A DNA stretch of 16,566 bases from Desulfurococcaceae archaeon (GTDB lineage: Archaea; Thermoproteota; Thermoprotei_A; Sulfolobales; Desulfurococcaceae). Below, piece after piece: positions 578-14,930 of the stretch. Where the stretch lies: positions 1 through 16,566 of the forward strand of contig JAWAJB010000019.1 in NCBI GenBank assembly GCA_038888155.1, in the 5' to 3' direction. Position 1 is the stretch's first letter. Each line of letters opens with the position of its first letter. The notes below the pieces were generated by a model that saw only the letters and a program-made list of their open reading frames with translations, was not told the origin of the DNA and did no database searches. The position numbers and the translations under genes were made by a program.

Positions 578-613
578 CCTATTCATATGTAATAGAACGA
601 GAGGGTGGATTGC

Positions 614-871
614 TTGAATAGAGATCGAGTTGTCGGCATACTGTTATTTACAGTCTCTATCTTAATAATACTCGTCTATGCTTGGATACTCTTCTTTACA
701 CAATGGGCCATGCTCGTAATACAGATAACCCTCATGATAGCTGTAGCAGGAGTATTAGGTATACTTGCTTGGATAGGATATACTCTTGCAACGACACCAC
801 CGCCTAAACCAATAGAAGAAATAGAGAAAGAACTAGAACAAGAATCAAAGCAATCTGAATCTAAAGAATAA
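614..871 (+). CDS. Small two-TM archaeal membrane protein with TTPPPKPIEEIEKELE tail; DPM2-like N-terminus
   Basis: Likely start TTG at 614 (MNRDRVVG...) after SD-like GAGGGTG, rather than GTG 605. Two hydrophobic helices, then Pro-rich and acidic helical tail. I recall this as a conserved archaeal family often auto-annotated 'transcriptional regulator', but no DNA-binding motif is visible. Confidence 0.85.
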   Translation: MNRDRVVGILLFTVSILIILVYAWILFFTQWAMLVIQITLMIAVAGVLGILAWIGYTLATTPPPKPIEEIEKELEQESKQSESKE

Positions 872-1138: not shown

Positions 1139-1561
1139 ATGTTCGTCTCACATTATTCATCATCCTCTCCGCAAAGTTCTCTTAATGATGTGGGTGCTAT
1201 GCTCTTAAAGGATTTACGATGTATTGTAGTGAAGGTTAAGAAGTTGAGGAAGTGGTATCTAGTCAGTAGACTGACACGAGCCTTTATAAGATCTTGTCTT
1301 TTAATGAGGTTAGAAACTGTTAAGAGTCTTATCTTAATGAAAGCCATAGTTAAGACTATTAAAGAGCTTAAGGAAATAATTTCAGAAGAAGCAAAACTAA
1401 TAAGGATGGGGTTAAGCGAAGCATGGAAGATAAGCGAATTAGCTTCAAAATGGGGTCATAGCTCTTCAAAAAGTTGGAAAAGCAATAAGTACTTCATAAT
1501 ATATCAGGCATTAACACTGAAGTGGATAAAAAAGTTGTTTGGATTGGTTCTGTCAAATTAG
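1139..1561 (+). CDS. Conserved basic hypothetical protein (W..vSR..R, VKS..L, G...A...S..A..WG.....W pattern)
   Basis: 140-aa Lys/Arg-rich ORF with a good TATA box; pattern resembles an uncharacterised family I recall from Bathyarchaeia-type genomes. Confidence 0.75.
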   Translation: MFVSHYSSSSPQSSLNDVGAMLLKDLRCIVVKVKKLRKWYLVSRLTRAFIRSCLLMRLETVKSLILMKAIVKTIKELKEIISEEAKLIRMGLSEAWKISELASKWGHSSSKSWKSNKYFIIYQALTLKWIKKLFGLVLSN

Positions 1562-1644: not shown

Positions 1645-2601
1645 ATGAAAGTTCAGGAGAACGTTGCAGAAAGTTTTCGATTAGATGAGAATGAAAGAGA
1701 ACAGCATATTATTGCATGTATCCCGGCGTACAACGAGGAGAAAACTATAGCCCAAGTGATATTGAAAACTAAAAAATATGTTAATAAAATTATTGTGTGT
1801 GATGATGGCTCGACAGATATGACTGCTGAGATTGCTGAAGCACTTGGAGCTGAAGTAATAAGACATGAAAGAAACATGGGTAAGGGAGCAGCTATTCGTA
1901 GCTTATTTAAAAAAGCTAGAGAAGAAGTCGCTGACATAGTAATTACCATAGACGCAGATGGGCAACACGATCCAAACGAAATACCCATGCTTCTCAAAAT
2001 AATGTTTGAGACTAATGCTGACATAGTTATCGGAAGCAGATTCCTGACGGAAAAAACTGCTAGAAAAGTACCAAAGTATAGATATTTTGGGAATAAACTC
2101 CTAAACTTAGTAACTTTTGTAGAAGATATAACCGATACTCAAAGCGGTTTTAGAATATATAATAGGAAGGCAGTAGAAATGATAAATCCAGCTGAAATGG
2201 GGTTCGCGGTAGATTCAGAGATACTTTACAAAGCTGTGAAGCTAGGTCTCAAGATAGTTGAAGTCCCAGTAAATGTTGAGTATAATGTGCCGAGACCATC
2301 AAAACGCGGTCCAATATACCATGTACTAGACGTATCATTAAGTATGCTTAAGCAAATGTCAATAAGACATCCATTAATCTTCTATGGTATACCTGGATTA
2401 ACATCCATCATTATAGCATCTATCACAGTAGCCTTACTGCTATATTATTATAACTTATCTAGGTACTTCAGTCTACCTCTCGCAATATTAAGCCTAGGAT
2501 TCATACTGGCTGGAATAATGTTCTGCTCAACAGCAATAATATTATGGGTGCTAACATCATTATTAAGGGAAGGACACGATTCACCCCTCAAATCTAAGTA
2601 A
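1645..2601 (+). CDS. Glycosyltransferase family 2, DPM1-like polyprenol/dolichol-phosphate sugar synthase with two C-terminal TM helices
   Basis: Motifs IPAYNEE, VCDDGSTD, N.GKG, DADGQHDP (DxD), VIGSRF, DTQSGFR, IVEVPV; hydrophobic C-terminus. Confidence 0.93.
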   Translation: MKVQENVAESFRLDENEREQHIIACIPAYNEEKTIAQVILKTKKYVNKIIVCDDGSTDMTAEIAEALGAEVIRHERNMGKGAAIRSLFKKAREEVADIVITIDADGQHDPNEIPMLLKIMFETNADIVIGSRFLTEKTARKVPKYRYFGNKLLNLVTFVEDITDTQSGFRIYNRKAVEMINPAEMGFAVDSEILYKAVKLGLKIVEVPVNVEYNVPRPSKRGPIYHVLDVSLSMLKQMSIRHPLIFYGIPGLTSIIIASITVALLLYYYNLSRYFSLPLAILSLGFILAGIMFCSTAIILWVLTSLLREGHDSPLKSK

Positions 2602-2602
2602 A

Positions 2603-2779
2603 GGTATAGTATTAATGTTCTCACCTTTCTTTAAAATCTTTATTGGATATCTATCTGACAACAACTTCAAGCATTTACCAGCTATAGAAGAAAGCATACT
2701 GGCATTCACGTTGATAGCATTAGGATTACAGGCATACTTTTCAGCATTTATGTTAAACATAACAGGAGAGAAGACATGA
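2603..2779 (+). pseudogene. C-terminal TM remnant of a second DPM1-like GT2 (readable as a 54-aa ORF from ATG 2615)
   Basis: MFSPFFKIFIGYLSDNNFKHLPAIEESILAFTLIALGLQAYFSAFMLNITGEKT*; the 'ILAFTLI.LG.Q..FS.FML' ending resembles the last TM helix of a DPM1-like GT2 subfamily; its TGA overlaps the next ATG (ATGA, 2776-2779). Confidence 0.6.
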
Positions 2780-3954
2780 AGATATTACTGCTTACACAAC
2801 TTTTTCACTCTTCTCGTGGTGGAGGAGAAATGATGTTCTTTCAGTTGGCCAAGGGTTTAGCCGAAAGAGGACACAAAGTATATGTGATAAAACATAAAAT
2901 ATTAAATGATAACGAATACGAAGGGAGAAAACATAATATACAGATTTATAGTATATTCCCATCCATAGAACATAAAGGAGGGCTTCCTGCCTCCATTATA
3001 CAAAACCTACTGTATTTCTTTAATTGTTTAAGGATGTCTGTCAAGCTTGTTAAAAAAGAACAAATAGATGTAATTCATGCGAGCAATTATACCCCAATTC
3101 TTGCAGGTTGGTTTCTATCTACATTAACAAAGCGCCCTCTATTGGTAACTATTCACGACATAGTGTCTATGCATGGAATTCATTTTTGGGAGAAATGGAT
3201 GAAACAGTTTGGCAAACTATCTAAATTGAAAGCATTAATGGGATACGTAATTGAGTTGATAAGTGTAAAGATTTCTAAAAATATTCATACAGTTAGCGAA
3301 GCTAGTAAAGAAGATATATTACGATTAAAATTTAAAGAGAAAAACGTATATGTTATTCCAAATGCGTTAGACGTTTTGAAATACAGTCCTCATTGCGAGA
3401 GCATTGAGTACGTGAACGAAATAGCTTTTATTGGGAGATTAGTATTCTATAAGAATTTAGAAGTAATATTGAAAGCGTTATCATGTATCGCTGAGCATGA
3501 AGTTAAGCTTCTTGTTATAGGTGATGGGCCCATGAGATATTATTGGCAGAAGCTAGCTGAAGACCTTGGAGTAGCAGGTAAAGTTAAGTTTATGGGATAT
3601 ATCTCTCATGAAGAGAAGGTAAAGATCTTGAGAAAAGTTTCTGCCTTAGTTCTTCCAAGCTTGTTTGAAGGTTTCGGAATTGTGATTCTTGAAGCATGGG
3701 CATGCAAGAAGCCAGTAATAGTTGCCGACCTCCCACCACTTAATCAGATCGTTGAGCATGGCAGAGATGGTTTTATCGCTAATCCATTTAAACCTGAGGA
3801 ATGGATGAAATATATCCTACTTTTAACTAGTAATAAAGAGTTTGCTAAGGAACTTGGACTCAATGGTTATAGTAAGCTAGTAGAAAAGTATAACATAATA
3901 GACTGGATTACAAAACTTGAGGAATTGTATCGGGAATTGATTACTAGAAAATAA
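2776..3954 (+). CDS. Glycosyltransferase family 4 (GT-B fold, retaining)
   Basis: N-terminal GGGE, LAERGHKV, VTIHD, VIPNA, FIGRL..YKN, GDGP, PSLFEGFGIVILEA (EX7E motif); GGAG SD upstream. Confidence 0.95.
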   Translation: MKILLLTQLFHSSRGGGEMMFFQLAKGLAERGHKVYVIKHKILNDNEYEGRKHNIQIYSIFPSIEHKGGLPASIIQNLLYFFNCLRMSVKLVKKEQIDVIHASNYTPILAGWFLSTLTKRPLLVTIHDIVSMHGIHFWEKWMKQFGKLSKLKALMGYVIELISVKISKNIHTVSEASKEDILRLKFKEKNVYVIPNALDVLKYSPHCESIEYVNEIAFIGRLVFYKNLEVILKALSCIAEHEVKLLVIGDGPMRYYWQKLAEDLGVAGKVKFMGYISHEEKVKILRKVSALVLPSLFEGFGIVILEAWACKKPVIVADLPPLNQIVEHGRDGFIANPFKPEEWMKYILLLTSNKEFAKELGLNGYSKLVEKYNIIDWITKLEELYRELITRK

Positions 3955-4186: not shown

Positions 4187-4622
4187 ATGAACATAAAATT
4201 ATTTATAGTTAGTGGGTATAAAATGGATTCTTTGCTTTTCGGAGCTACGCAAAGAATTTACTATTTAGCAAAAGCGGCAAAAAATTTAGGTATTGATGTC
4301 TATATAGCCCATCCAGGGAGAACGTATGAAAAGAATGGTATCTCCTATATTCACTATGGGTTTATGTTTAAAAGTTGGCAATTTGAACTTTAAACTTCCT
4401 CTTTTCCTCATTAAATCCATTAGTTATTAAAGACTTGATTTCTCTTATTGAAGAAATAAAACCGGATATCGTGCAAATAGAGCAACCATATTTGTTTATC
4501 CTATCAAAAATTTTAAGAAAAGCGAGCTTCTTTAAAAAGTACGCATTGTACTTGATGAGCATAATGTTGGGTTCTTAGCTATGAATAAACCTAATACTTT
4601 ACTCTTACTACCCTATGTTCTA
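4187..4622 (+). pseudogene. GT4 glycosyltransferase pseudogene, N-terminal half
   Basis: GATQRIYYLAK..; frameshift near 4370-4390 to LIEEIKPDIVQIEQPY; second frameshift near 4535 to RIVLDEHNV; cut off by the IS6 remnant. Confidence 0.8.
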
Positions 4623-4959
4623 GTAACCCATAGATAGGCTCTCTTGGCTAGATTATATATTACTGCCTCATTCACGGCTATGAAGACCCTCCTACACTAG
4701 AGATAAATGAAAGAATCTCCTCAGCCTTATGGAGCCGCATCCTCATAGATTAATAGCTAATATTGAATCCTAGTTCTGAGAGGACCTCTTGAAACCCTTC
4801 TAAGACTTAACTCCTAAACATAAAGCCTTAACTCATCTAGTAAAACTACAGCTAGGAAAAACATTCCTATCACTAAATAATCTAATCAGATGGGTCAAGT
4901 CAACCACTATACAAGTTCATAGATAAAGAGAAGAGACTTAGCCTTAACTTGACAGTATC
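4623..4959 (-). mobile_element. Truncated, degenerate IS6-family insertion sequence (left end plus transposase N-terminus)
   Basis: Minus strand begins GATACTGTCAAGTTAAG (4959-4943), resembling archaeal IS6 termini; from GTG 4907 reads across frames MVDLTHLIRLFSDRNVF...VKAL...LSLRRV...EVLSELGFNISY*SMRMRLHK...RRVFIAVNEAVIYNLAKRAYLWV, matching IS6 'GLS.R', 'IAVDET' and 'YLW' motifs. No right end found. Confidence 0.8.
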
Positions 4960-5254
4960 ATCAAAATGGACAGAAGTTTTTTCGATAGTAACACTTGAAG
5001 CTATCGCATCTTCATTATATATAATTTCTTCAAAAAATGGAAGTTTGCCGGATATTCTAGATAAATATCCTCGAAAAATTTACCTACGAGAAGTAATCGT
5101 AAGTGAGATAGTGAATAAGCCAATCATTCTCATCAATAGTTGGAATACAATGAATGAACAATGTCATGACGACGAATTAACATACCTGAAGAATTTTGAT
5201 TGGACTAATATAGCAGACAAAATAGAGTATTTGTACAAACAGTCGGTTAATTAA
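4960..5254 (+). pseudogene. GT4 glycosyltransferase pseudogene, C-terminal part
   Basis: Starts right after the IS end with SKWTEVFSIVTLEAIAS (EX7E motif), then GSLPDI and FDW..IA; the listed TTG start at 4949 lies inside the IS terminal repeat. Confidence 0.8.
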
Positions 5255-5267
5255 AGATAGTTGAAAA

Positions 5268-7085
5268 TTGGATAAGAAGATGGGGGATCTTAAGCTGCCA
5301 GTCCCTACTTCATTAAAGAGAGTCATGTTGCTTTTGATACTTCAAAGCTCGTTTATCTTTCTCTCTCCATATATTCAATCTTTCTTTCAACATATTATTG
5401 ATTTTACAAATCTTGATCACCTACTACTAATATTTGTAGTTGTTATACCATATCTTTCAGCATTATTTACAGTATGTATTTTAGGGCCAGGTAGTGAAGA
5501 ATCTCTTTACACTTCAAAAATAAAGATTGTAAGCAAAGTAGATATTCCATTAGTAGCATGTCTCATTTTCATATCTTTAATCATTTTTTCTAAGTTTTCT
5601 CAATATGATATGCCTGTTGGATATGATACCCCCTTGTATCTTGCTTGGGTAGAAGCTATGTTAAAAGAAATGAAATTTAAGTTCTCCATCACTGATTTTC
5701 TCATTGGACGACAATTTTATATCTACTTGCTTACAATTTTAAAATCTTTTCTAAATGTGGATTCACTAATACTAGGAAGATTCCTCTGGTGTCAGATCAT
5801 TCTCTTGCTTATACCTCTTTATTTATTAGTTAAACTACTTACAAATTCGAGTTTTATTGGGTTTGTCTCAGGATTACTAATGATATTCTGGCATAGAACT
5901 CCAAGGCTTATATCAGATCTTCATGCAAATGTTTTTGGGATCTTCGTAATGTTAATTTTATTCATCATAATCTTTCTTATTACCAACACGCATACAAGTT
6001 ATGTAATGAAGCTTTCTACGATATCATTCTTTGGCACATTGTTCATTTATCAATTTCATCAAATGACAGCCTTAGTGTTTGCTTTAGCTATGATGGGGTA
6101 CTTAGTATCTCAATCCATTTCTTACGTGATGGTAATTCATATGAAAGGTGTTGCCAATAACATAGTAAAAAATAGAAGTACGAAAATAGTTCTTTTTCTG
6201 CTACCAATAACTATGTATATTTTGTGCCGCGGATTTGTAACCGCAGGGTCATCTATAGTAAATTTTTATCCATTGATGAAGGATTTTCTAAGAAAATGGT
6301 GGCCCGAAATTCCTATATATAATTTTGAAAGTTTTGTAGGCTCACTAGGTGGATGGTATATTTTTATCTTGGCTGAAATAGGCATCGTATACATAATAGT
6401 CAAACATAGGACGAAATGCTTCATCAGAATCTTAATGGTCTATCTTATAACATCGTTGTTGCTATTTCAGAACAACATATTTGGATTACATGCCCTTCCC
6501 GAGAGGTTTGCTGTATTTACGTTGATGCCCATTTATGCATCTCTAGGCTTAAATTACATTAGAGAAATATTTGGTCAGCATTTAACGAGAAATGTTCGTC
6601 TAAGAATTGATTTTTTCTCAAAAAGTTTTTCAAGGAGGACATCAAATATACATAACATCTCATTCGTGATGATATTGCTAATACTATTAAGTCAAATAGT
6701 GCCTCTACAACTTGCTATAATAGACCGTTATGGACCAACTATAAGTAGAGAGGCATACGAAGACCTAAAGTATTTAAGAGATTATTACGTGAATATAGAC
6801 ATTCGGAGTAATAAAAGTGTATTGATAATATTCTCTAATACTAAGCTTTTAGAATGGATGAAGCAGCTAATGCCGATAAAAGCCATCAGATATCCCCAGG
6901 ATCCCGTAGTAGGGATGGCAGGATTAACTACTTACAGCTATAACATCGAAAAAATAAAATTATGGGAAGTTGTTTATCTAATAGATCCTAGCAAAAACTA
7001 TTTTCAAAATATTGGTTATTCATATTATGAAATAATCTTGAATTCCAGCATAATAATCTATAAGATTACTCAAAATCAATCATGA
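5268..7085 (+). CDS. Large multi-pass membrane protein, probable GT-C fold glycosyltransferase or glycan polymerase
   Basis: 605 aa, roughly a dozen hydrophobic segments, acidic loop motif GYDTPLY after the N-terminal helices, conserved-looking DLHAN, FHQMT and PERF, soluble C-terminal domain; alternative start ATG 5280. Coding status is secure, function is inferred. Confidence 0.75.
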   Translation: MDKKMGDLKLPVPTSLKRVMLLLILQSSFIFLSPYIQSFFQHIIDFTNLDHLLLIFVVVIPYLSALFTVCILGPGSEESLYTSKIKIVSKVDIPLVACLIFISLIIFSKFSQYDMPVGYDTPLYLAWVEAMLKEMKFKFSITDFLIGRQFYIYLLTILKSFLNVDSLILGRFLWCQIILLLIPLYLLVKLLTNSSFIGFVSGLLMIFWHRTPRLISDLHANVFGIFVMLILFIIIFLITNTHTSYVMKLSTISFFGTLFIYQFHQMTALVFALAMMGYLVSQSISYVMVIHMKGVANNIVKNRSTKIVLFLLPITMYILCRGFVTAGSSIVNFYPLMKDFLRKWWPEIPIYNFESFVGSLGGWYIFILAEIGIVYIIVKHRTKCFIRILMVYLITSLLLFQNNIFGLHALPERFAVFTLMPIYASLGLNYIREIFGQHLTRNVRLRIDFFSKSFSRRTSNIHNISFVMILLILLSQIVPLQLAIIDRYGPTISREAYEDLKYLRDYYVNIDIRSNKSVLIIFSNTKLLEWMKQLMPIKAIRYPQDPVVGMAGLTTYSYNIEKIKLWEVVYLIDPSKNYFQNIGYSYYEIILNSSIIIYKITQNQS

Positions 7086-9766: not shown

Positions 9767-11416
9767 TTACTCATAAAGAGAAGATAGAGACCTTGAGAAA
9801 AGCTTCCGCTTTAGGATTTCTAATGTTAGTAAAGTGATGTAAGCAGTGGGGTCTTTAATTTTACTTTCAACCAGCAATGTATTTTCTCCTCTTGAGCATG
9901 ATAGTTTATAATAGAGTTTAGGAAAATATACATCAAAACCGCATGGATTCTTCACAAAAGAATTTCTTTTTGCTACTACTAAGAGTGCCTTTTTAAGAAG
10001 ATTATGTATATTTATATATCTCGAAGTAAGTAAGGGGATAATTTTACTTTTCATAATCCTTGTAATATCAGATGAAATATCTAATTGTGAGAAAACATTT
10101 TTCTCGAGAAAGTCTAGATAAAATTTTTGATATTTTTTAAATTTAAGAGATAAAGACGCAAAGAACGAGACTATTCTTTTATCCCAAAGTGGAAAAAGAT
10201 GACCGTAACCCAACAATGTATATGGCAACCTTGCACTCGCAATAAATTTATACTGTCTCTCTCTCCAATTAAACATTTCAACTAGCTCGTAGATTTTCGG
10301 TTTATGATCGGGATTGTAGTGCTTGACTTCAGCATACAGTTTGCTTAAGTATCTTGTTAAAGTTTCCCTGAGTTCTATTGGATAAAGGGAAAAACATGTA
10401 TGATGACTCTCAAGTATTGCTTGTGCCGCCTCAGCAAGATTGCTTGCCACTACTGATTTTGGAAGCAATTGTTTCCCAGACAAAAAATCTCCTGTATCTC
10501 CAGGGACAAACACCACATCTTTATGAAGCGCGAATTCTTTTTGGAAAATCTTATCAAATTTAATGGTTGAAATAAGCTCCTGAATATTCGGCGTTCTGAA
10601 CAACTGGCTGTTCTTAAATAAGTATTCGGGTAAAATATTGCAAACATAATTCCAATCTTCATCAGTATATTCAATGAGCATATGATGTAAACCTAGTTTT
10701 TTGGCTATGGCCTTAGCTATAGGGAACTCATAGCTGTATTTAGCACCATAGGTTAAAGCTATTGGCCGATTTTTCATTAAAAAGAGCATAGATAATATAA
10801 ACCTTGAATCATATCCTGCTGACAACGGTACTATAACAATCTTGTTACGAAGTATTTCGGCACATTCTCTGAACACCTCCTTAATTATATGCCAAAATAG
10901 TTCTTCAGCTAACTCTTGGTCATCTAAAACATCTCCTAAAGGCATATAAACAAATGTTGTCTGGACCTCGCATCTATTGTCTTGACAAATTAATTTTTTA
11001 CCTGCCTCCAGCAAATATATTCCGTTAACTAGAGTGTTCCGACCTAGTACATTCTTTAATTCTCTAAACTCCAAAAAGCTATTTGGGCTTCCTTCAATAT
11101 CGTCATCATAAACAAGGACATAGATATCATCTGAGAGCAAAAAAGTTCCATTTCTTTTTATGGTATAGAATAGAGGCTGAGGATTGAATAAACCTGCGAA
11201 CGCTTCAAGATAATCATCTTTAACAATCACGTACGGAAGTCCGCTTCTGAATATATACCTTTCAGCATCATAGAAATCGTGTAGTGCAATATAAAATCCT
11301 TGTGGAATATACAGTTTCCCGTTTCTATTCTGCTTCAGAAGTATATAGCGTGTTAGTAAGACCTTTACTGCCTTAACTGAGTCCGTAAAGTTGGAGTCGT
11401 CCACGATCTTATCCAT
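9767..11416 (-). CDS. Asparagine-synthase-like (PP-loop) ATP-dependent amide ligase, polysaccharide-locus type
   Basis: PP-loop VPLSAGYDSR, TYG, PGDTGDFLSG, FNWRERQYKFI, PLWD; degenerate Ntn-like N-terminal region (PLFY, LSDD) with no N-terminal Cys; AGAGGT immediately before the ATG. Confidence 0.85.
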   Translation of the reverse strand: MDKIVDDSNFTDSVKAVKVLLTRYILLKQNRNGKLYIPQGFYIALHDFYDAERYIFRSGLPYVIVKDDYLEAFAGLFNPQPLFYTIKRNGTFLLSDDIYVLVYDDDIEGSPNSFLEFRELKNVLGRNTLVNGIYLLEAGKKLICQDNRCEVQTTFVYMPLGDVLDDQELAEELFWHIIKEVFRECAEILRNKIVIVPLSAGYDSRFILSMLFLMKNRPIALTYGAKYSYEFPIAKAIAKKLGLHHMLIEYTDEDWNYVCNILPEYLFKNSQLFRTPNIQELISTIKFDKIFQKEFALHKDVVFVPGDTGDFLSGKQLLPKSVVASNLAEAAQAILESHHTCFSLYPIELRETLTRYLSKLYAEVKHYNPDHKPKIYELVEMFNWRERQYKFIASARLPYTLLGYGHLFPLWDKRIVSFFASLSLKFKKYQKFYLDFLEKNVFSQLDISSDITRIMKSKIIPLLTSRYINIHNLLKKALLVVAKRNSFVKNPCGFDVYFPKLYYKLSCSRGENTLLVESKIKDPTAYITLLTLEILKRKLFSRSLSSLYE

Positions 11417-12635: not shown

Positions 12636-13936
12636 TTGTCTGAAGAATTGTGTGTTATTGGGCTGGGTTACATAGGTCTTCCCACCGCTGTTATTTTTGC
12701 TAATAATGGGTTTGAAGTTATGGGCGTTGACGTCGATGACTCTAAAGTTGCAATGGTTAATAATGGTAGATCTTACCTTAAGGAACTTAGTCTGACGATC
12801 TTCTTAAAAAGGTTGTCCTCGAAGAAAAGCTTAGAGCTACCACTAATATTGATAAGGCTCTAGAGCGATGTAATATCTTTTTGATTGACATCCCTACACC
12901 TGTAAAGACTGCTATTGTCGATTTGAGTTATGTTGTTAATGTCTCTAAGATTATTGCTAGAAGGTTGCGTAGGAATGTGCTTGTGGTTATTGAATCTACG
13001 GTGCCTCCTGGCACGACTAACGGCTTTGTCAGGAATATACTAGAGGAAAGTTCAGGACTAAGAGCCGATGATGATTTTTACCTTGCACATGTTCCGGAGC
13101 AAATAGCATCAGGTAGGGCTATTAAAGAGCTACTTAACGTTCCTAGGATTGTTGGTGAAGTAGGATCTCATTCAACCGATAAAGCTTTAGAGATTTACGG
13201 AAAGATTAATCCTAACCTGTTACTAACAGATGCTACTACGGCTGAATTCGTCAAGCTTATTGAAAATACTTTTCGTGATTAAACATAACTTTTGCTAATC
13301 TAATCGCACTAATTGCTGAGACGCTTGGCATAGATATCTACGAAGCTATTAGATTAGCCAATACTCATCCTAGGGTAAATATACATTGGCCTGAGGCAGG
13401 TGTTGGAGGACCATGTTTAACTAAGGATCTGTATATGCTTGTCTCTCTAATATCAAAGTTTTGAGGCGCTGAGCTTATAAAGATTGCGAGGAGAATCAAC
13501 AAATACATGTCATACCATGTAGTCAGAATAGTTGAGAAAGCACTTAGATTCGAAGGATTAGATCCAACTTCTTCAAAGATAGCTGTCCTTGGAGTAGCCT
13601 ACAAAGAAGGTATTGACGATACTCGAGAGTCTCCGGCTAAGATAATAGTCCATGAGCTCGTTAAAAAAGCAGAGAGGTGTAGTCCATGATCCATATACGC
13701 ATGAGAGCTTTGAAGCTAGATACTCTGAGAACGTGGAGGAAGTAGTTAAAGATTCTGACGTGATGGTGGTGGTTACAGACCACCCTGAGTTTAAAGCACT
13801 TAATTTAAATGACCTTGGAAAACTTATGAGAAATAAGATAATCGTAGATTGTAGGAAGGTTTTCAAGCCTTATCAAGCAATAGTTGCCGGCTTTAAGTAC
13901 TATGGAGTAGGGTATGGTAAAGCGTGGAAGATATGA
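12636..13936 (+). pseudogene. wecC: UDP-N-acetyl-D-mannosamine dehydrogenase-like nucleotide-sugar dehydrogenase pseudogene
   Basis: GLGYIGLP, PTP, ESTVPPGTT, AEFVKLIENTFRD, GVGGPCLTKD, LGVAYK...DTRESP, TDH..F, D.R motifs split by frameshifts near 12793, 13280 and 13670-13678 and an in-frame TGA at 13462-13464. Confidence 0.9.
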
Positions 13937-13942
13937 AAAGAT

Positions 13943-14930
13943 ATGAATATTCTAGTATTCACAGGGACAAGACTGGAGATAATAAAGATGGCTCCAGTCA
14001 TTAAAAAGCCTGAGGATAAAGGGCTAGAATTCATTTATGTTCATACCGGTCAACATTATGATTATGATATGAGTAGAAGGTTTATTGAGGAGCTTGGATT
14101 ACCAAACCTACACCTAGAGTTCAAACTAGAAAATGATTCTCCTGCCGAACAAATAGGAGAAACAATGATTAAAATAGAAAAAGCTTTAGAATCACCCAGG
14201 AGGAAACCAAGAGTGTCACTAGTACAAGGAGATACAAATAGTGTATTGGCAGCGGCTCTTACATCACTTAGGCTGAGGATAAGGCTTGGGCACATGGAGG
14301 CTGGTTTAAGAAGCTATGACTGGAGAATGCCGGAGGAACACAATAGGAGAATGGTTGACCACATATCAGATTACTTATTTGCACCCACAGAACTAGCAAA
14401 GAAAAATCTAGAAGAGGAAAAAGTACTAGGACAAGTATATGTTATAGGCAATACAGTGATAGAGGCTCTTGAAATGTTCTCCGAGAAAGTTGTAGAGACG
14501 GAAACAAAGATATTAGAGCATGTAAAATCCGATAATTACATTTCAGTTACATTCCATCGTGCTGAAAATGTCGATGATCCGAAGAATTTGAAGAACTTCG
14601 TTGAAATACTGAGGAGGATAACTCTTCCAGTGGTTTATCCAATACACCCTAGAACGCTCAGAAGACTCGAGGAGCACAGCCTTCTTAATACGTTAAAAAA
14701 CATGAGACATGTTCAGATTATGCCCCCCGGGATACTTTGAATTTCTGGCTCTTCTCAAAAATGCAGTGCTAATAATTGCACGAATAGTGGGTTTAAACCC
14801 AAAGGTTGTCTTAGCCGAACTCGAGAGAATAATATCCTCCCAACCGGAGCTATCCATTGAATCGCCCTTCGGAGATGGAAAGGCATCTGAGAGAATAGTG
14901 GGTGTACTTGAGAAAGAATTACTACTTTAA
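13943..14930 (+). pseudogene. wecB: UDP-N-acetylglucosamine 2-epimerase (non-hydrolysing) pseudogene (copy 2)
   Basis: GTRLE (usually GTRPE), HTGQHYD, VQGDTNS, HMEAGLRS, MPEEHNR, GNTV, TFHRAEN, PIHPRT, PFGDGKASERI; frameshift at C6G3 (~14723-14731); the TDSGG..QEE...ERPE block is missing near 14775. Confidence 0.9.

Follow-up and report, generated by a model that had tools for sequence, protein, structure and literature searches.

Close to the start of a 16,566-nucleotide contig of a Desulfurococcaceae archaeon (JAWAJB010000019.1 of assembly GCA_038888155.1; this whole stretch is called the window), a small gene on the plus strand (614..871) encodes a membrane protein of about 85 residues. 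Its sequence relationships place this protein, although only transitively, in the DPM2/PIG-P family as a divergent form with a short loop, and we consider homology to this family highly probable. DPM2 is a regulatory subunit of the eukaryotic dolichol-phosphate-mannose (Dol-P-Man) synthase and also a subunit of the glycosylphosphatidylinositol (GPI)-GlcNAc transferase, to which PIG-P belongs as well. An earlier inspection of the DNA letters, the sequence-only reading, had proposed an archaeal DPM2 homologue two genes upstream of a DPM1-like synthase. Membership in the DPM2/PIG-P family was supported through proteins of Asgard archaea, but not an assignment to DPM2 in particular, because these bridging proteins match the models of both families. 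The position had been described accurately, as a 140-aa gene lies between the hairpin gene and a glycosyltransferase family 2 (GT2) gene (1645..2601, plus strand). As an overall explanation we propose, with not quite even confidence, that the protein is a short-loop hairpin of this family accessory to a lipid-linked sugar transferase; the accessory-subunit function, taken by itself and argued from analogy, is put forward tentatively.

Since no eukaryotic DPM2 or PIG-P sequences were at hand, the Pfam models DPM2 (PF07297) and PIG-P (PF08510) stood in for the eukaryotic families, and the last step to eukaryotes rests on them. Neither model matched the window protein at E ≤ 10, and at the same threshold the DPM2 model had no match in the host genome. 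The best match of the PIG-P model in this genome (E 0.09) was a paralogue of the window gene. When 28 members of the family were scanned, the DPM2 model matched three (best E 0.1), the PIG-P model seven (best E 0.019) and Phage_holin_3_6 (PF07332) all 28 (best E 4.5e-6). The latter was also the best Pfam match of the window protein (20.6 bits, E 4.7e-4, cut-off 28.4 bits) and is read as cross-matching between hairpins, not as membership. Judged on these direct tests alone, before the Asgard proteins were considered, kinship with DPM2 appeared improbable.

The connection was provided by Asgard archaea. Among 301 Asgard genomes, 85 matched the Pfam DPM2 model at E ≤ 0.01, 33 of them above the Pfam cut-off, compared to none of 14 control genomes. 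The matched open reading frames (ORFs) encode about 82-151 aa, except for one tandem form of 181 aa. Like the window family, they have a K/D-D-K-x-x-G motif at the N-terminus, an aromatic pair within helix 1 and a second helix that closes with AAWIG[YW]TM.TTPPP.P.EE; their inter-helix loop is longer and carries W-A-x-A-I-P. Twenty of 30 fetched ORFs were combined in an alignment (A2), after removal of near-duplicates, of an ORF fused to HhH and of a tandem form. Scanned singly, all 20 matched the DPM2 model (best E 1.8e-14, 54.2 bits versus a cut-off of 27.3) and 13 the PIG-P model (best E 1.3e-9). Comparison of A2 with the alignment of the window family (A1) by hhalign gave a probability of 99.6% (E 1.7e-24) over 79 columns covering both helices and the linker, whereas the controls with reversed sequences reached 1.7% (A1 versus reversed A2) and 2.8% (reversed A1 versus A2). 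The motif columns common to both alignments are D-[QK]-x-x-G, the aromatic pair in helix 1 and W-I-G-[YW]-T (W56-T60). The neighboring GT2 has a C-terminal hairpin of its own, which was rejected as a paralogue of the family: it gave 0.5% with A1 and 1.4% with A2, like reversed sequences. Profile searches of PDB sequences with A1 and A2 at E ≤ 10 returned noise only (best E 2 and 0.62), with no chain of DPM2, PIG-P or the Pyrococcus furiosus synthase among the hits. A HMMER-type comparison with the Pfam DPM2 model, which the sequence-only reading had named as a check, thus left the window protein itself unmatched, while its family was linked by profile-profile comparison with the Asgard proteins. 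The tandem form mentioned above (Asgard locus L106, 568..1110, plus strand) carries two DPM2-type hairpins, is matched twice by the DPM2 model in one frame, and is a natural fused dimer.

Forms between these extremes were found in the host phylum, Thermoproteota. Here the DPM2 model had matches (E ≤ 0.01) in 30 of 301 genomes, with a single genome exceeding the cut-off, and in none of the 13 genomes of the host's own family. All six matched Thermoproteota proteins that were fetched are family members with loops of intermediate length and the linker TTPPPKP, and together with the Asgard DPM2-type proteins they have the core WIG[YW]T..TPPP. The proteins thus form a continuum from short-loop Thermoproteota forms via intermediate ones to Asgard forms with a long loop, which pass as DPM2 in Pfam. 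Longer relatives also belong to the family. In eight of ten of them (P0272-P0279) the hairpin is fused to HhH/DUF4332 domains, in P0259 it is fused to HHH_5, and an Asgard ORF (L098, 1267..1719, minus strand) has an HhH-like tail. These fused relatives occur in several lineages, including an Asgard genome, keep the linker TTPPPKPIEEI, and match the PIG-P model with E values of 4e-6 to 5e-5. The W-A-x-A-I-P segment occurs in A2 as well as in the fused relatives, and is absent from A1.

The gene lies in an ORF at 605..871 (plus strand) that starts with GTG and encodes 88 aa; initiation at TTG 614 would give 85 aa. The TTG start was judged likelier because homologues begin with MSRDQ or MNRDQ at this position, the nearest database clusters comprise 85 aa, and the Atlas record begins at residue 4; residue numbers given here refer to the 88-aa frame. 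The two strings quoted in the sequence-only reading are both present, DRVVGILLFTVSILIILVYAWIL as residues 7-29 and AWIGYTLA as residues 55-62, and its description of a protein of about 85 aa with two transmembrane helices agrees with the AlphaFold2 model. This model, calculated with the family alignment (mean pLDDT 81.3), contains helices at residues 3-31, 35-63 and 70-87. The first membrane helix (611..697, plus strand) carries the invariant residues D7, G11, Y25, W27 and F30. It is separated by a loop of three residues, much shorter than that of the Asgard relatives, from the second membrane helix (707..793, plus strand), which ends with AWIGYTLAT in both model and alignment. The linker TTPPPKP then leads to helix 3 (812..865, plus strand; pLDDT 66-70), an acidic C-terminal tail predicted to be cytoplasmic. 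Both termini probably face the cytoplasm because the loop is short and acidic, the N-terminus is basic, and relatives carry C-terminal HhH fusions. Structure searches with the model were uninformative: Foldseek had no match in the PDB at E ≤ 10, which says little for so simple a fold, and a wide VIA-align search retrieved nothing beyond unspecific helical hairpins and coiled coils (best Z 6.0).

The most conserved block of the 28-member alignment, AWIGYTLATTPPPKPIEEIEKE (residues 55-76; 767..832, plus strand), comprises the end of helix 2, the proline linker and the start of the acidic helix. Residues 55-69 (AWIGYTLATTPPPKP) are invariant in all 28 members, which come from different orders, and six of the seven residues 70-76 are invariant or nearly so. 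In more distant members WIG[YW]T..TPPP is kept and the tail is variable. Within the membrane helices, D7, G11, Y25, W27, Q40, T42, W56, G58 and Y59 are invariant polar or aromatic residues or glycines.

By eye, a purine-rich stretch, GAGGGTGG, is located just upstream of the start of the hairpin gene, and two A+T-rich, TATA-like stretches are seen at about 571-576 and 586-593. In one metatranscriptome library, contigs cover positions 612-775 and 781-1032, which indicates presence in the RNA library and is not proof of a transcript. These are the only contigs of this library on positions 400-2662 of the window, with 400-611 and 1033-2662 uncovered; such gaps say nothing on transcription. The first contig starts two bases before TTG 614, which hints at a leaderless transcript, although contigs do not prove a transcription start. 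Rfam and tRNA scans of the window gave no match.

The family is widespread. A search with the single sequence matched 2158 proteins at E ≤ 0.01, the family profile matched 551 representative clusters (50% identity) at E ≤ 0.001, and a pattern scan with one genome per species indicated at least 571 encoded relatives among the 599 matched stretches listed. Pyrobaculum and Infirmifilum are among the named records that contain a member. Of the 301 genomes sampled from the host phylum, 273 matched at E ≤ 1e-5; among high-quality genomes the count was 241 of 262, and by genus it was 109 of 122. The gene is real, its occurrence is far beyond chance, and it is strongly conserved. One family of the host's own order (f4) is an exception, with matches in only one of ten genomes, which are mostly complete and 1.8-2.8 Mb in size; this reflects either lineage-specific loss or divergence past detection. 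One match of the family profile was rejected: in P0121, a protein of 6831 aa, 29 stretches match profile positions 41-76 and lack the WIG motif, so that they are taken as low-complexity matches, probably to a proline/glutamate-rich repeat. Whereas most genomes of the phylum carry one or two copies, four are present in the 2.4-Mb bin of the host, on contigs C19 (614-880), C132 (687-947), C1 (191892-192155) and C3 (99061-99291, a divergent copy). The copy on C132 may come from a second organism because the bin has 6.4% contamination.

To analyze the genomic context of the family, 79 fetched loci and the window were combined to a set of 80, using crude ORF calling and clustering. The most common neighbors were NAD-dependent sugar epimerases/dehydratases (17 loci), GT2 proteins (14 loci), ABC ATPases (10 loci) and sugar nucleotidyltransferases (8 loci). 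Models of the sugar families were then built and the share of sugar-related ORFs was measured by distance from the hairpin gene. It amounted to 24 of 214 ORFs (11.2%) within 1 kb, 14 of 239 (5.9%) at 1-2.5 kb, 7 of 265 (2.6%) at 2.5-4.5 kb and 7 of 257 (2.7%) at 4.5-7 kb. Genes for sugar-nucleotide enzymes and glycosyltransferases are therefore about fourfold enriched within 1 kb compared to 2.5-7 kb (14/522, 2.7%), where it has to be considered that the categories were picked after the most common neighbors had been seen and that related genomes are not independent. Sugar genes were immediate neighbors in 19 of the 80 loci; among random genes taken from the host genome the figure was 115 of 1962 (5.9%). 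The 19 loci come from Bathyarchaeia, Nitrososphaeria, Desulfurococcales, a Korarchaeote and an Asgard genome. In 57 of the 80 loci no sugar gene was present within 1 kb. The proximity to sugar genes in the window thus recurs as an enrichment beside the family and is absent, within 1 kb, from the majority of loci; adjacency to genes for sugar activation and transfer is moderate and recurrent.

The relationship to the GT2 gene itself was less clear-cut. The two genes are 770 bases apart with one gene between them, and any GT2 within 7 kb was found in 14 of the 80 loci. Eleven cluster members match the GT2 of the window, one of them closely (L020, 48% identity over 297 residues) and the others with 26-41% identity; the linked GT2s are different paralogues, with no single GT2 orthologue linked to the hairpin gene. 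In the host genome (97.4% complete), the Pfam DPM3 model had no match at E ≤ 10. A complex prediction with the hairpin alignment A1 and a GT2 alignment (A3, 50 sequences) gave 0.00 in both runs, without controls, versus a mark of 0.32 and weighs neither way. The phyletic pattern cannot discriminate either, because the GT2 model was found in all 301 sampled genomes, including one unpublished genome (G697). That the hairpin protein forms part of a DPM complex with this GT2 stays a proposal, given the gap with an intervening gene, the small number of loci with a GT2 and a single close relative among them, and the missing DPM3.

Compared to DPM2, the window protein has a similar size, the same two-helix hairpin, an N-terminal D-x-x-x-G and [WF]-I-G/S-Y at the end of helix 2. 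It differs by a three-residue loop in place of the long loop with W-A-x-A-I-P, by an invariant tail, TTPPPKPIEEIEKE, that lies outside the Pfam match, and by falling below Pfam detection in a host genome without a DPM3 match. The likeness to PIG-P consists in the matches of seven of the 28 members, 13 of the 20 Asgard proteins and the fused relatives to the PIG-P model, all of them below the Pfam cut-off of 39.3 bits. Unlike the setting of PIG-P, the glycosyltransferase family 4 (GT4) protein encoded downstream (2776..3954, plus strand) has no PIG-A domain in its list of ten families at E ≤ 10, and GPI anchors are not known from Archaea. With the DPM2/PIG-P-like hairpins of Asgard archaea the protein shares family and motifs; in contrast to them it is a short-loop Thermoproteota form that is missed by the Pfam models and misnamed in databases.

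In the mechanism we propose, the family would represent the archaeal stock from which the eukaryotic subunits DPM2 and PIG-P of the endoplasmic reticulum (ER) derive. By analogy to these, the hairpin may pack against the membrane portion of an enzyme facing the cytoplasm and loading sugars onto a lipid carrier, and could stabilize or enhance this partner transferase as its eukaryotic relatives do. Candidate partners are a Dol-P-hexose synthase of the GT2 type or a GT4, with the neighboring GT2 being one candidate only. The invariant TTPPPKPIEEIEKE tail might serve as a docking element.

Several observations weigh against this explanation, in addition to the absence of direct DPM2 and PIG-P matches for the window protein and of DPM2 and DPM3 matches in the host genome, the many loci without a nearby sugar gene, the way the sugar categories were chosen among related genomes, and the variety of linked GT2s. 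The GT2 of the window needs no tether because it has two membrane helices of its own. The other three copies in the host genome are in non-glycan contexts: the copy on C1 is separated from a CDP-archaeol synthase gene by less than 1 kb, containing two short uncharacterised ORFs, the divergent copy on C3 is convergent with a polyprenyl synthetase gene (PF00348, 3.8e-53), and the remaining one is located beside genes for membrane proteins of no known family. The Pfam DPM2 match ends at model position 71-73 of 75 and the invariant tail is outside of it, so that the most conserved part of the protein has no known eukaryotic counterpart, and the long loop of DPM2-type proteins is missing. Finally, a membrane-tethered HhH protein would be odd for a glycosylation subunit, and the HhH/DUF4332 fusions are easier to reconcile with a general membrane anchor than with a subunit of a transferase.

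A general membrane anchor or adaptor, in which the proline linker and the acidic helix recruit a conserved cytoplasmic partner unrelated to glycosylation and the role in glycosylation arose later, on the line to eukaryotes, is the strongest competing explanation, though we regard it as rather unlikely. Besides the HhH-type fusions (eight of ten longer relatives, P0259 and L098), it would account for the housekeeping-like distribution in 273 of 301 genomes of the phylum, for the heterogeneous neighborhoods and for a tail that is the most conserved part of the protein while lying outside the DPM2 match. It does not explain the fourfold enrichment of sugar-nucleotide and glycosyltransferase genes beside the hairpin gene in several unrelated lineages, the invariant polar and aromatic residues of the helices exceed what a passive anchor needs, and both eukaryotic descendants act in complexes of lipid-linked sugar transferases.

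Alternatively, the hairpin could handle polyprenyl phosphate (dolichol phosphate), binding the carrier at the cytoplasmic face of the membrane and presenting it to any transferase without a fixed protein partner. Such a function would be in line with the lack of a fixed glycosyltransferase partner among the loci and with the positions of the C3 and C1 copies next to genes of polyprenyl and archaeol lipid synthesis; moreover, the title of a 1998 paper by Maeda et al. reportedly credits DPM2 with 'binding of dolichol phosphate'. The lipid-gene contexts are limited to these two, both in one genome, and we consider this function quite unlikely.

A more specific arrangement is suggested by the type-III Dol-P-Man synthase of P. 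furiosus (5mlz), whose four membrane helices form two hairpins; its authors state (PMC5526996) that DPM2 and DPM3 could match the two hairpins topologically, with TMH1 and TMH3 resembling human DPM2. A GT2 with two helices plus a separate hairpin would, by analogy, have the same helix count. The Thermoproteota hairpin might then be what was once the second membrane hairpin of a Dol-P-hexose synthase and is now a separate protein. A DPM1-type GT2 with two helices or none and the hairpin would together make up the four-helix domain of the type-III enzyme, and the acidic tail would clamp the catalytic domain as DPM3 does in the human enzyme. Searches gave no sequence link of the hairpin family to any PDB chain and the hairpin of the GT2 is not homologous to the family, and a split synthase is in our view decidedly unlikely. 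If true, the multi-subunit design of the eukaryotic DPM enzyme would be older than eukaryotes and even than the Asgard lineage, and the hairpin, given that the family is nearly universal in the phylum, would be a core, overlooked part of archaeal glycosylation.

A chance likeness of hydrophobic hairpins in a family unrelated to DPM2 and PIG-P is largely refuted and very improbable: the DPM2 model misses the window protein at E ≤ 10 and hairpins cross-match easily, as the Phage_holin_3_6 matches of all 28 members show (that of the window protein being below the cut-off), but the hhalign probability of 99.6% contrasts with 1.7-2.8% for reversed sequences and 0.5-1.4% for another real hairpin, the common motifs are located outside the hydrophobic cores, loop lengths form a continuum within one family, and the DPM2 model matched none of the 14 control genomes.

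The weakest alternative comes from the databases, in which NCBI and JGI records name the proteins 'transcriptional regulator' or 'predicted DNA-binding transcriptional regulator' and the automatic cluster names of the Atlas include 'HTH DNA binding domain', its look-up having returned clusters of the own family only. A DNA-binding regulator is hardly conceivable, and for the stand-alone form the domain content refutes it, since no DNA-binding domain was found in the window protein (Pfam, NCBIfam) or in the 28 members (Pfam) and the two membrane helices together with the acidic tail account for the 88 residues. HhH domains occurred only in the longer fused relatives. For stand-alone hairpin proteins, 'transcriptional regulator' is thus a propagated misannotation, which probably spread from fused or wrongly grouped forms.

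The explanation we prefer, an accessory hairpin of the DPM2/PIG-P family, touches on published work in part. The sequence-only reading had expected the gene to shed light on how the multi-subunit eukaryotic DPM complex arose; an archaeal origin of DPM2 and PIGP is already in print, as PMC12872463 (Nature 2025) gives 'DPM2 and PIGP: 2.88-2.06 Ga' among duplications 'of archaeal origin' that predate the last eukaryotic common ancestor. In PMC12992685, the eukaryotic membrane subunits are expected to be structurally distinct, and PMC4973528 argues for a proteoarchaeal origin of Dpm1. A further candidate paper, PMC12153357, was discarded because 'DPM2' is an instrument name there. A search of the literature on DPM2 and PIG-P combined with archaea, Asgard or TACK-group names retrieved no paper on the function of the archaeal proteins or on their presence in Thermoproteota. 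While the archaeal roots of the family have been published, the short-loop, misannotated Thermoproteota form is newly added here.

DPM2 and PIG-P are small, poorly understood helpers of two essential ER enzymes, and defects in their pathways lead to human glycosylation disorders. The short-loop form escapes the Pfam models, is misleadingly named, and occurs in about nine in ten genomes sampled from the phylum; its invariant tail is predicted to be cytoplasmic. Its partner and any effect on Dol-P-hexose synthesis would tell what the ancestor of DPM2 and PIG-P did, and the assignment to this family would correct a widespread annotation error.

With respect to the neighboring genes, the one between the hairpin gene and the GT2 gene (1139..1561, plus strand) encodes a basic protein of 140 aa of no known family, with no match to Pfam or NCBIfam. 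It is considered a real gene because a paralogue with 67-70% identity follows the second hairpin copy on contig C132 (28..450, minus strand); weak relatives are located 4-6 kb from the hairpin gene in loci L027 and L048. The GT2 appears to be of the Dol-P-hexose synthase type (Pfam Glycos_transf_2, 8.8e-31). The AglJ model reached 138 bits with it, which is below the cut-off of 325, and its only PDB match at E ≤ 1e-10 was the Dol-P-Man synthase of P. furiosus (5mlz_A, E 1.3e-17). Its two C-terminal hydrophobic segments start at residues 243 and 271. Among the DPM1-type GT2s of the host genome there are two-helix, four-helix and helix-less forms.

The gene at 2776..3954, which encodes the GT4 mentioned above (Glycos_transf_1, 3.2e-37; Glyco_transf_4, 4.1e-22), is the first of a series that continues with further GT4 genes, a methyltransferase gene, genes for sugar-nucleotide enzymes and a flippase gene, and by its gene content the window is a glycan cluster. 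Several genes of this cluster look truncated or split (4187..4393, 4949..5254, 12881..13282 and 13943..14740). Among them are a GT4 fragment that covers only positions 98-134 of Glycos_transf_1, a piece of a UDP-glucose dehydrogenase covering only positions 82-182 of the N-domain model, and a UDP-GlcNAc 2-epimerase covering 5-247 of 347. Frameshifts or gene decay may be the cause. Two larger proteins of the cluster, of 605 aa (5268..7085, plus strand) and 549 aa (9767..11416, minus strand), have no Pfam match at E ≤ 0.001 and may be uncharacterised membrane polymerases or GT-C-like enzymes.

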